Assembly: GCA_021735655.1 (NCBI GenBank)
Contig: JAIPGM010000006.1
Span: forward strand, 32,001 to 96,000
DNA: 64,000 nt
From: Candidatus Omnitrophota bacterium
Lineage (GTDB): Bacteria; Omnitrophota; Gorgyraeia; Duberdicusellales; 4484-171
Reading direction: 5' to 3'
Each line of letters opens with the position of its first letter. Positions within the stretch are counted from its first letter, which is position 1. The notes below the pieces were generated by a model. The model was not told where the DNA came from, did no database searches, and saw nothing but the letters and a program-made list of their open reading frames with translations. The translations under genes were made by a program, and so were the position numbers. Shown here piece by piece: positions 14,328-18,968 of the stretch.

Positions 14328-16088
14328 TCATTCCGGCTTACCCTGATAAATACTTTTCAAAGATAACTCTAAAAAATCAGCCGCCAGCGGATTATAGCCT
14401 TCATAAGCAAGCAAAAAGTAAGCGGTTGAAGCTAAAGACCCGGTTCGACCACCCCTAGGAGTTCTCCAGCCATGGCCAGTATCTGCCCCCGGTGAAGAAG
14501 CATAGGGTAAACAAGGATCTTCGCGACCCACCAAAGAAGGAGATGTTATTAGCATTTTCTGTAATTCATTAAAATAAAAATAAGCTTTCTTTAAGTATTC
14601 TTTTGACTTCTCGGGATCCTTATCTTTGAAATAATCAGCCATTATCTCAAAAGCTAATATCATCTGACTGGTCCATTCCCCAGATACTACTCCTCCCCGA
14701 GCAATATGTTTAGCCTTGGCAAAATCAAAACCAGTTAATTTTGACACTCTTTCCTTATATTGGAATTCGACTGAAACTTGACAATTCTCAATAGCAAAAT
14801 CTAGAATTGCCTCTGGATTCATACCCAAAGAATAAAGCGCTTCCGGGCCGAAAGAACTTACCGACCAAGTATAGGTATCAGTCGCTATAGTAGAGTCACC
14901 CTTACCTCGCTTAACCGGCTGGCCATAATCACTATAAGCATAGCGCGCTACCCAATTTTTTATTCCCTCAGCAATATCTCGATATCTTACGTCACCGCTA
15001 AGCTCATAAAATAAACGGAAAAAAGCGAAAGCATCAAGATTGTGTTCGGTAGAATACCAAGAAACTTCCGGTCCACCCTTAATTCCTGCCTCTTTGTCCA
15101 TCATCTTAATCAAAAATCTACTCACTGTCTCAATTATTGGTAAATATTTTCGATTGCCGGTATGCTTAGTATAGCAAAGTGCCGCCAACCCTATCCAAGC
15201 ATTAGGCCCGGAATGTTGAACATATTCGAAAACTCCACCTCGAGTGAAATAAGCATTATAGATAAGTTTATCAGTATTTATTTTATCTAAATAAAAATTA
15301 AGAATTTTTTCTGCTCTTTCAGTGTCACCACGAACCAAAAAAATAATTGCCGCTAAAGACTGATCATAAGTAAAACAAACCCTTTTAAGACTATTGTCTC
15401 CTTCGAAACTAAGCACCAGGCCCCGGGAAAGATCCTGTCGGTTCTTAATCCAAGAATACATCCCTTTTATTATCTGAGAAGAAAAACCTATTCTTTCTTT
15501 ATCTAAGCTAGCTACTTCTTTTTTAATATCGCTCTTTGCTGAAGACTCAACCCCTTCAGAAAGAAGCTCTTCCAAGGCTGAGGTTCTTTCTAAAACTTCA
15601 ACATAATCACTTACTAATTTTTGATTTGCCTTAGTCAAAGAAAAATTATGCCAAAACAAAGACAAAGCGACGGCAACTAAAACGAACCCCGCTAAACTTA
15701 CCGAGAAAGGAATGCTCTTCTTCACAACTGCATATTTAAATATTCTATTACTTGCCGATTTATCAATATCTAAAAAATCTAGACCAGCCAGATATTGGAT
15801 AAAATCATCCTCGCCTTTACTTCTTAGCCAAGAAACCTTTGCCTCCAGGCATACCGGTTTAGCTATAAAAGGAAAATTTACCCTTAATGATATTCTTGCC
15901 CCAGGAGATCTTAGCTTATCGTAAAACCCACGCCAAAGCTCATTAACAATAAGGCAAATTCCACCTTTGCCGATGTCGCGTGTGAATCCTTGCAACCAAG
16001 GCGTGATTCTTCGACCCTGGCTATCAATAATAAAAAATTCGACCGGCAAAACAGTAGAAATTCTTAGATATCTTCGACGGTTACTCAT
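14328..16088 (-). CDS. PilZ domain - TM - large (alpha/alpha)6-barrel-like (glycoside-hydrolase/epimerase-like) fusion protein
   Basis: N-terminal RRRYLRIS...DIGKGG (PilZ RxxxR / DxSxGG); central hydrophobic helix; C-terminal about 400 aa Trp/Tyr/Gly-rich domain. Confidence 0.5.
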   Translation of the reverse strand: MSNRRRYLRISTVLPVEFFIIDSQGRRITPWLQGFTRDIGKGGICLIVNELWRGFYDKLRSPGARISLRVNFPFIAKPVCLEAKVSWLRSKGEDDFIQYLAGLDFLDIDKSASNRIFKYAVVKKSIPFSVSLAGFVLVAVALSLFWHNFSLTKANQKLVSDYVEVLERTSALEELLSEGVESSAKSDIKKEVASLDKERIGFSSQIIKGMYSWIKNRQDLSRGLVLSFEGDNSLKRVCFTYDQSLAAIIFLVRGDTERAEKILNFYLDKINTDKLIYNAYFTRGGVFEYVQHSGPNAWIGLAALCYTKHTGNRKYLPIIETVSRFLIKMMDKEAGIKGGPEVSWYSTEHNLDAFAFFRLFYELSGDVRYRDIAEGIKNWVARYAYSDYGQPVKRGKGDSTIATDTYTWSVSSFGPEALYSLGMNPEAILDFAIENCQVSVEFQYKERVSKLTGFDFAKAKHIARGGVVSGEWTSQMILAFEIMADYFKDKDPEKSKEYLKKAYFYFNELQKMLITSPSLVGREDPCLPYASSPGADTGHGWRTPRGGRTGSLASTAYFLLAYEGYNPLAADFLELSLKSIYQGKPE

Positions 16089-16185: not shown

Positions 16186-16572
16186 CTATTTCTCTATATT
16201 TTTTAATTTTTGATAGAAGACTATAAACTCTTTCAAACCACGCACATTTTCTAAATCCGCATCTTCTAAAATATAAGCGAAATCATCATAACCAAGCAAA
16301 ACTGCCTTCTTTAGTTCATTAATCGCTTGCTTAGGTTTTCCGGTAAGCGAAAGGCTACAAGCAAGATTATAATGAATAACCGGGTCGTCCGGTTTCAAAC
16401 TCACTAATTTTTTATCTACAACCAAACCTTGGGTATAAAGACCTTTGCGAGTATAGGCATCCCCTAAAGAAATTAGCGCTCCGACAAAATCAGGGCGTTC
16501 CTTTAAAATATTTTCATAAAAAGATATCTCTAAATTACTTATTTTTCTAGATTTATCCTTATCCTTCTTCAT
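16186..16572 (-). CDS. TPR-repeat protein
   Basis: Tetratricopeptide-like helical repeats. Confidence 0.55.
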   Translation of the reverse strand: MKKDKDKSRKISNLEISFYENILKERPDFVGALISLGDAYTRKGLYTQGLVVDKKLVSLKPDDPVIHYNLACSLSLTGKPKQAINELKKAVLLGYDDFAYILEDADLENVRGLKEFIVFYQKLKNIEK

Positions 16573-18968
16573 TTAACCTTTTCCAAAATAATCTCTTCGC
16601 GTAATCTATAAATGGCATCTTCAAGGAATTTCTCAAATCTTGAGTATTCCTCAGCCTCAACAAAACGTTTTTTCATCTTAAAATTTTGATGGAAATCAAT
16701 ACCCTGGTCAAGTTTCTTGTAAGAAACTTGAAGATCAAACCAAGGATTTTCCAAAATAAATGTTTCCGGTAAATATTTAACTTTCAAATTTTCCGGCAAA
16801 ATTATCCTTATCTTAGAATCCCGGCCGTGTAATCCTTCAAAATCTATCGGGTACTTCCTCTGATCTTTACTAATAAGTTTATGATCTAGCTGAAGTTGAT
16901 CTAAAACCGGAAGGATTCGTAAATCCCCAGCCGGGTTTAAAACTTTTTTAGCTTCAAAATTATAAGTAAGCATTGGATTTTTGGAAAAATCGTCAACATT
17001 TTTAATACTATAGTCAACAAAAGTAGAAAGCGACGATATCTCCCGCATTTTTTTACGGAGATCTTCTTCGATTAAGGCCGGGTGTGTATACTTTAGATAC
17101 CAACGATAAGAAGCAGCAAAAAATCCACTACTTATCACTCTGCGAATAACCTTCGCATTCTCGTCAGCATCAACTGTAATTTTCATATCATATTTAACTC
17201 TATTTTTTTTCAATGTATCGGTAGTAACAATCTTCCAGCCTTGATCAAAAAATACCATCACCGAACGATTCTGATCAGAAAGCGGTATATCCATAAAAGG
17301 AGTTGTTTCAGAGGTAGGATCCATAAAGATTAATTTATCGTCAATTTCAACAGCAGCAATAGCATGGTTAAAATTAATTGAAGGGAAGCTTTCCTCGATA
17401 GGATAAACGCTATCAGTAGGGATAAGCACCGGATAAGCCTTAAGGCCAGCTTCTCGGAGCAAAGAAACTAATAATACCGCCTGGTCCTTACAATCGCCAT
17501 AGCGATTCACAAACACTTCTTGGGCTGAGTGTGGTTCGTGTCCACCTTCTCCATACTCAATAGCTACATACCGAATATTTTTAGCCACAAATTCATGAAT
17601 TTCTCGAGCCTTGCCAAAGTCATCGGTGGCAGTTTCAATGATTTTACTCAAAAACTCTCTCATGCTTTCAGTTACCTGAATTTTATCTTGATAGAGAGAT
17701 TCCCACCACTCATAAATCTCATCCCATGAAGAAAAGCTCGATATTAGAATTGCTGGGTTAACATAAGCGTAAGACGGCATTGAATACTCGGGAATTATTG
17801 GTTTTATTCGATTGAATTCCCACCTATAGACCTTTGAATCATCACTTTCAGATAAAGATGGCTTAAGATCTATGCCTTCGGCATAATTTTGATTAAAAAA
17901 CTTAAAATTTACCGGGCTCTCTCTAGGCGTAACAAGATTAAAGTACGCTTTAAACACTGGGTATTGCTCCCTTAAGCGATAAATAAAGGTAAATTTGTCC
18001 TCGTTAACTAATTTTGATGAATAAATTTTGAATTTATATTCAATGAATGAACCAACATCTACTGAAGGCATAGAAATAATTCGAGCTCGCGAATTACTAT
18101 AAAGAGGAAAATTAAGATAGCGGCTAACGTCGCGGATATTCTCTTCTCCGACATATCTAACCTGCCCTTCCTTAGTTATCGTACGAGCAAACTCTAGCTC
18201 TATACGCTGGTAAGTTGAATCATACCCAATGTCGACTTCAGCTAATTTTTTGCCTCGCTCTTTTAAAACTTGCTCGATAACATGAACCGTAGATACCGAA
18301 GTATTTTTAGGAGTAATCTCCGTCGCCTCATCTACAAGAAGATAAACTGCAGCATCGTCGTTTATTTCAGTTAAAAAACTTTCTGCACTTTTAGTGATTT
18401 CTTTTATCTCTAAAGGTATTCCTTCCTCTACTTTGGCCCCAATCGCTTTAATTCTTTCTTTGGCCCGAGACTCAAAAGGCGGTGTAACTTTAGCATATAT
18501 TTTTAAAGCCTTAGGGAAAAGATTTTTCTCCTCTAATACTGTTCCATAAAGATAAAGGTATTCTGGGTCTTTAGGCAGCGGTTTTAATTGTTCAAAAATT
18601 TCAATAGCTAAGGCGTACTCTTTAAGCCTGGTATAAGCCTTAGCTAAAATAACTCTTGCCTGAATCAGATCAAAACCTTTAAACAGATCAATTGTGCGCT
18701 GATAATCCTTGAAACCATAATAGAATTGGCCAAGCTCAAGGCGTAAGGAATTATTTTGGGGGTCACTCTTGAGAAGTTCTTGATGTTTACTAATCAGATC
18801 TTCATATCGCTCCGAGAAATCACCAAAATCATCAGAATTAATGGGTTTATCCATTGGCTGGGGAGCACAACCTAAAAGGGCAGCAATAGCTACAAACAAA
18901 ATAAACCTGGAAGCGTAAACTTCCCAAATAATATTTTTTCTAAGCTTCGGAGTTCTAAAAATAGGCAT
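16569..18968 (-). CDS. TPR repeats + transglutaminase-like cysteine protease domain protein (lipoprotein-like N-terminus)
   Basis: N-terminal signal/lipobox-like LLGCAP and TPRs; transglutaminase core YGDCKDQAVLLVSLLREAGLKAYPVL; large DUF3857-like N-terminal region. Confidence 0.6.
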   Translation of the reverse strand: MPIFRTPKLRKNIIWEVYASRFILFVAIAALLGCAPQPMDKPINSDDFGDFSERYEDLISKHQELLKSDPQNNSLRLELGQFYYGFKDYQRTIDLFKGFDLIQARVILAKAYTRLKEYALAIEIFEQLKPLPKDPEYLYLYGTVLEEKNLFPKALKIYAKVTPPFESRAKERIKAIGAKVEEGIPLEIKEITKSAESFLTEINDDAAVYLLVDEATEITPKNTSVSTVHVIEQVLKERGKKLAEVDIGYDSTYQRIELEFARTITKEGQVRYVGEENIRDVSRYLNFPLYSNSRARIISMPSVDVGSFIEYKFKIYSSKLVNEDKFTFIYRLREQYPVFKAYFNLVTPRESPVNFKFFNQNYAEGIDLKPSLSESDDSKVYRWEFNRIKPIIPEYSMPSYAYVNPAILISSFSSWDEIYEWWESLYQDKIQVTESMREFLSKIIETATDDFGKAREIHEFVAKNIRYVAIEYGEGGHEPHSAQEVFVNRYGDCKDQAVLLVSLLREAGLKAYPVLIPTDSVYPIEESFPSINFNHAIAAVEIDDKLIFMDPTSETTPFMDIPLSDQNRSVMVFFDQGWKIVTTDTLKKNRVKYDMKITVDADENAKVIRRVISSGFFAASYRWYLKYTHPALIEEDLRKKMREISSLSTFVDYSIKNVDDFSKNPMLTYNFEAKKVLNPAGDLRILPVLDQLQLDHKLISKDQRKYPIDFEGLHGRDSKIRIILPENLKVKYLPETFILENPWFDLQVSYKKLDQGIDFHQNFKMKKRFVEAEEYSRFEKFLEDAIYRLREEIILEKVK

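Follow-up and report, generated by a model that had tools for sequence, protein, structure and literature searches.

A PilZ domain joined through a transmembrane helix to an extracytoplasmic (alpha/alpha)6 barrel in a conserved gene module of Omnitrophota

The fusion gene and its membrane topology

The window (the whole stretch of DNA analysed, 64 kb) carries a gene whose product joins a PilZ domain, a single transmembrane (TM) helix, a helical stalk and an (alpha/alpha)6 barrel. The initial annotation gave no strand for this open reading frame (ORF), which its translation places on the minus strand. It is a genuine gene: more than 1,100 homologous clusters at E <= 1e-3, the best at about 1e-250, reject a chance ORF. 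The features of the encoded protein are as follows.

14328..16088, minus strand: whole ORF of the PilZ - TM - stalk - (alpha/alpha)6 fusion, 586 aa plus stop, ATG start
15732..16082, minus strand: PilZ domain, residues 3-119 (Pfam PF07238), with beta-barrel strands within 8-105 and a C-terminal helix from 110
16062..16076, minus strand: first c-di-GMP motif RxxxR, R5-R-Y-L-R9 (RRxxxR counting R4), from the alignment
15960..15977, minus strand: second motif [D/N]hSxxG, here D38-I-G40-K-G-G43, aligned to NISAGG of YpfA
15648..15713, minus strand: single TM helix, residues 126-147 (IPFSVSLAGFVLVAVALSLFWH), Kyte-Doolittle maximum 2.27, predicted N-in/C-out
15444..15647, minus strand: helical stalk, residues 148-215, from model helices 110-177 and 182-215
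14343..15443, minus strand: (alpha/alpha)6 barrel on the extracytoplasmic side, residues 216-582; residues 437-454 are an inserted beta-hairpin

The encoded fusion is a bitopic inner-membrane protein, and the three-part order PilZ - TM - (alpha/alpha)6 given in the initial annotation is borne out by the Pfam match, the hydropathy profile, the full-length AF2 model (pLDDT 87.9) and structure searches. At its N-terminus lies a cytoplasmic PilZ domain of canonical type, which scores 28.5 bits against PF07238 over residues 3-119 (gathering cut-off 22.5) and in which a six-stranded beta-barrel is followed by a C-terminal alpha-helix, resembling solved PilZ domains. All 37 aligned homologs match the same family, with a best E of 6.6e-13.

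Binding of c-di-GMP by PilZ domains is associated with the motifs RxxxR and [D/N]hSxxG (Galperin & Chou, bioRxiv 10.1101/814665), and both strings quoted in the initial annotation, RRRYLRIS (R5...R9) and DIGKGG (D38-G43), are found in the translation. R5 and R9 are invariant or nearly so in the family alignments, RxxxR occurs in essentially all full-length family members, and in the fusion it aligns with RRQYVR of B. subtilis YpfA/MotI (5VX6). In the second motif the Asp, the hydrophobic residue and the final Gly are kept, but Gly40 replaces the canonical Ser, which in MapZ contacts c-di-GMP (bioRxiv 10.1101/814665). Among 116 close relatives this position is Gly in 88, Ser in 17, Ala in 6 and Cys in 3; in the distant branch it is Ser in 10 of 12. 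The claimed PilZ signature holds, then, in that RxxxR is kept and the motifs are not degenerate, but not at the Ser of the annotated 'DxSxxG'. Because roughly three quarters of the branch, the window protein among them, have Gly at that position, c-di-GMP binding by the domain, as judged from the motifs, is rated no higher than likely. According to Galperin & Chou (bioRxiv 10.1101/814665), binding is preserved in PilZ domains that are parts of fusion proteins, and their C-terminal helix is the likely read-out. GGDEF domains and pilZ genes have been reported from Omnitrophota; within the 64-kb window, a regular-expression scan of all six frames returned no GGDEF, EAL or HD-GYP signature, and the window contains no second PilZ domain.

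Residues 126-147 form the sole strongly hydrophobic 19-residue window in the protein, and the net charges of the flanks (+4 on the N side, 0 on the C side) predict an N-in, C-out topology. The proposed topology of one TM helix with the barrel on the extracytoplasmic side therefore agrees with the prediction. In the AF2 model the TM helix is contained in one continuous helix (110-177), such that the C-terminal helix of the PilZ domain runs unbroken into the TM helix and then into the stalk. The stalk of the window protein is short, with about 62 aa from the end of the TM helix to the start of the barrel, where the family as a whole has a coiled coil with a median length of 140 aa, and its alignment has a gap of about 80 columns in this region relative to most homologs. 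The long form of the stalk matches coiled-coil proteins and Pfam families. The window protein is therefore a rare short-stalk form, whose reach may differ from that of a typical member.

The fusion family comprises more than 1,100 protein clusters and is present in 407 species-representative genomes; its named carriers are essentially all Candidatus Omnitrophota. The architecture is thus uncommon, as had been annotated, for bacteria generally, but not within Omnitrophota, where the fusion is among the most widely conserved uncharacterised envelope proteins. We found no published description of a PilZ-barrel fusion family in the literature searched.

The extracytoplasmic barrel and its invariant carboxylates

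The barrel is modelled with pLDDT mostly above 90. By Foldseek it has the fold of GH76, of the AGE superfamily and of the MmpH-type / GH15-GH125-like glycosidases, so that structure searches return exactly the six-hairpin glycosidase or N-acylglucosamine epimerase fold that had been guessed from the sequence. Sequence comparisons return weaker matches. With the window protein alone, Pfam yields no glycosidase family at E <= 0.1, GH76 included, and no GlcNAc_2-epim match, and a single-sequence phmmer search of the fusion protein against PDB sequences found nothing. Across the 37 homologs, sub-threshold Pfam matches are to GH76 (30/37), GH127 (23/37), C5-epimerase (12/37) and GH88 (6/37), the GH76 (PF03663) matches being weak (E <= 1) with a best E of 6.7e-6. 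The family profile searched against PDB sequences matches GH76 with an E of 1.4e-4. The residues on which these comparisons turn are listed below.

15363..15365, minus strand: D242, N-terminal in inner helix 240-252; may be catalytic or belong to the -1 subsite
15204..15209, minus strand: G294-P295 of 'HSGPNAW', the site of the GH76 catalytic Asp-Asp in HMM alignments
15045..15047, minus strand: E348 in STEHNLD, N-terminal in helix 347-364
14877..14879, minus strand: D404 in GKGDSTIATDT, N-terminal in helix 402-413
14676..14678, minus strand: E471 in SGEWTSQM, N-terminal in helix 470-487; may be the general base

Membership in GH76 is rejected, because the catalytic Asp-Asp falls on Gly294-Pro295, which aligns with D136/D137 of Salegentibacter GH76A (wild type and D136/D137 mutants). 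This Gly-Pro pair is invariant in the family, and G294 is kept in 50 of 50 paralogs. The barrel represents an uncharacterised domain family whose sequence is remotely like GH76 and whose fold comes closest to MmpH.

Four other residues, D242, E348, D404 and E471, are invariant in the alignments of both family branches and in all 50 non-PilZ paralog domains, which share 30-40% identity and occur in unrelated architectures, while most other family-invariant residues drift in these paralogs. In the model, each of the four is no further than the third residue into a helix. Because they stay invariant in 50 paralogous domains, the four carboxylates argue for a catalytic site, and it is on these residues, not on membership in a CAZy family, that a putative enzyme activity of the barrel rests; they could instead serve sugar binding or a non-hydrolytic reaction. 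In MmpH the general acid is D47/D50 and the general base E262 (PMC9883506). The spacing of D242 and E471 is 229 residues, versus 215 for D47 and E262 of MmpH plus the 18-aa hairpin, and by this sequence-spacing argument only, D242/E471 may be equivalent to MmpH D47/E262.

The barrel domain family is found again in stand-alone proteins and within giant proteins of Omnitrophota: homologs of the barrel occur in proteins of 2,000-7,900 aa at 30-37% identity, with E down to 1e-48, at least one of these proteins being from Omnitrophota. Of seven larger paralog-containing proteins scanned with Pfam, five had no match, and the other two only sub-threshold six-hairpin matches and helical-repeat noise. 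By structure prediction only, giants were described as holding GH76-like (4C1S) and cellobiose-2-epimerase-like (5ZHB) domains (West-Roberts et al., bioRxiv 10.1101/2023.11.21.568195); the model of the fusion protein matches both of these PDB entries.

Conserved neighbours of the fusion gene

Two genes lie upstream of the fusion gene.

16186..16572, minus strand: small TPR protein, 128 aa (Pfam TPR families, NCBIfam TPR_END_plus)
16569..18968, minus strand: TPR - DUF3857 - transglutaminase-core - DUF3858 lipoprotein, 799 aa (Pfam)

The small TPR protein has no hydrophobic segment (maximum hydropathy 0.53) and is probably cytoplasmic. The transglutaminase (TGase)-like lipoprotein has a lipobox, LLGC, with Cys34, and an intact Cys493/His535/Asp550 triad in the motifs GDCKD, NHAIA and MDPT. 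Counting only loci with enough flank (54 informative), the TGase-like gene lies directly upstream of the fusion on the same strand in 48 of 54, including that of Ca. Velamenicoccus archaeovorus, whose ortholog of the fusion lies at complement 1706259-1708220 of NZ_CP019384.1. This adjacency is found in 32 of 33 close-branch and 16 of 21 distant-branch loci and spans lineages down to 39% identity. The small TPR gene lies between the two in 36 of the 54 loci and is absent in a third. The grouping of the fusion with these genes in one envelope module, as first annotated, is strongly supported by this synteny, but the two genes lie upstream and not downstream, as the fusion gene is on the minus strand. 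The gene gaps in the module of the window are -4 and 97 nt. Since scans for promoters and terminators across 12.5-21.8 kb scored no more hits than shuffled sequence, the operon boundaries are drawn from gene spacing and synteny only.

The neighbours of the fusion gene encode the TGase-like lipoprotein, the TPR protein, an aminotransferase, AsnC and Era, and the 20 large ORFs surveyed with Pfam in other parts of the window have mostly housekeeping functions. There are no glycosyltransferase, polysaccharide synthase or export genes nearby in the 64-kb window. Placement in an exopolysaccharide operon thus has no support, and the suggested link to exopolysaccharide processing finds no support in these peptidase-like and housekeeping neighbours.

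A proposed transmembrane control mechanism and its relation to known systems

We infer c-di-GMP binding, catalysis and their coupling, and propose, with confidence about evenly balanced between acceptance and doubt, that the fusion is a c-di-GMP-controlled extracytoplasmic glycan hydrolase in an envelope module. In this mechanism, c-di-GMP would be bound by the cytoplasmic PilZ domain, and its occupancy would move the C-terminal helix of PilZ or change how that helix pairs. This change would be passed through the TM helix and the stalk and would affect how active the outer domain is, how it oligomerises or how far it reaches, an inside-out control comparable in its logic to that of Alg44. The barrel would cleave a glycan with a carboxylate acid/base pair drawn from D242, E348, D404 and E471, which should line the central funnel because they cap the N-termini of the inner barrel helices, as in the inverting (alpha/alpha)6 glycosidases MmpH and GH15. 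Acting with the putatively co-transcribed TGase-like lipoprotein and the small cytoplasmic TPR protein, the fusion would take part in envelope remodelling. A cell-wall or envelope glycoconjugate is more likely as the substrate than a secreted exopolysaccharide, because the conserved partners are peptidase-like and are not polysaccharide-synthesis genes.

Of the alternatives, all of them unlikely, the one that fares best supposes that the outer domain is constitutively active and that the PilZ domain recruits or releases partners (e.g., the small TPR protein) or sets the location of the protein, and not the catalytic rate. PilZ C-terminal helices are known as protein-interaction surfaces, a soluble TPR protein is encoded between two membrane/lipoprotein genes at two thirds of the loci (36/54), and allostery through a single TM helix and a stalk of 60-190 residues would be mechanically demanding. 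However, in the model the PilZ C-terminal helix runs on into the TM helix, which gives the signal a direct mechanical route, and at the loci where the TPR gene is missing the fusion still has its PilZ domain.

Somewhat less probable is a barrel that edits a periplasmic polymer without hydrolysis, as an AGE-type or C5-type epimerase/isomerase, a lyase, a transglycosylase or a cyclase. The mechanism of AGE epimerases is His-based, and the near-invariant His residues of the PilZ-fused family are kept in only 26% (H292), 60% (H349) and 34% (H539) of the paralogs, versus 100% for the carboxylates. From this poor conservation of His, and not from a residue-level alignment to AGE enzymes, we judge an AGE-type epimerase less likely. 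The best fold match (MmpH) and the sole sequence-level matches (GH76) are moreover hydrolases.

The weakest reading, a structural envelope component in which the PilZ domain has lost binding through the Ser-to-Gly change and/or the barrel is a non-catalytic glycan-binding domain or scaffold, could draw on the Gly at the c-di-GMP-contacting position, on the lack of an above-threshold match to any curated enzyme family and on the existence of non-enzyme (alpha/alpha)6 toroids, but is improbable given that RxxxR, D/N, h and the final Gly are strictly kept, that the switching between Ser and Gly among members of a single orthologous family looks tolerated and not like decay, that a second-motif substitution in PA2989 (Ser for D/N) leaves binding intact (bioRxiv 10.1101/814665), and that four carboxylates invariant across 50 divergent paralogs are hard to explain for a scaffold.

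If the fusion is indeed a c-di-GMP-controlled hydrolase, c-di-GMP control would extend to an enzyme acting outside the cytoplasm, and inside-out signalling along a single-pass coiled-coil stalk could be studied in a compact system. Known targets of PilZ receptors, which act on them from inside the cell, are polysaccharide synthases, flagellar motors and transcription. A bolder version, which we regard as speculative and doubtful, holds that cytoplasmic c-di-GMP directly switches an enzyme across the membrane via the TM helix and coiled-coil stalk, and that the barrel is a new glycoside hydrolase family, used by Omnitrophota both in a near-universal envelope module and, as a catalytic cassette, in giant, possibly predation-related surface proteins. 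With such direct switching, the fusion would be the first case of a second-messenger receptor that is joined to an extracytoplasmic glycan hydrolase and gates it. Omnitrophota are ultra-small, largely uncultured and possibly predatory or host-dependent. Because the outer domain of the fusion is homologous to domains inside the giant proteins, substrate work on the 390-residue soluble domain could give a biochemical handle on the role of the giants, which is otherwise very hard to test.

The domains in the giant proteins ('Archaeovorin'-type) are homologous to the barrel of the fusion and have the same four carboxylates, but these copies lack PilZ and are embedded in presumed surface-exposed proteins, and their identity with the domains pictured in the preprint is not implied. 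Among characterised enzymes, MmpH, the mycobacterial methylmannose-polysaccharide endo-alpha-(1->4)-mannosidase (PDB 7QSJ), is close in fold, with only 14% identity to the fusion, and is absent from the matches of the family profile to PDB sequences; judging from the published account of its expression and assay, it appears to be soluble, without PilZ, TM helix or stalk. The GH76 alpha-1,6-mannanases (Salegentibacter GH76A, 6SHD; Bacteroides, 6U4Z) have Asp-Asp where the fusion has its invariant Gly294-Pro295. In overall plan the fusion resembles Alg44, the alginate co-polymerase of Pseudomonas, which shares the N-terminal PilZ domain, the single TM helix and a periplasmic C-terminal domain. 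However, Alg44 has an HlyD/membrane-fusion-protein domain in the periplasm and the fusion an (alpha/alpha)6 barrel, Alg44 is encoded in an exopolysaccharide synthesis operon and the fusion is not, and outside PilZ the two have no sequence relationship. In the pairs formed by BcsZ, a GH8 (alpha/alpha)6 endoglucanase, with the PilZ-bearing BcsA, and by AlgL with Alg44, the receptor is a different protein from the hydrolase or lyase, and it is the synthase, not the hydrolase, that the messenger controls. Unlike both pairs, and with no synthase encoded nearby, the fusion is a single polypeptide.

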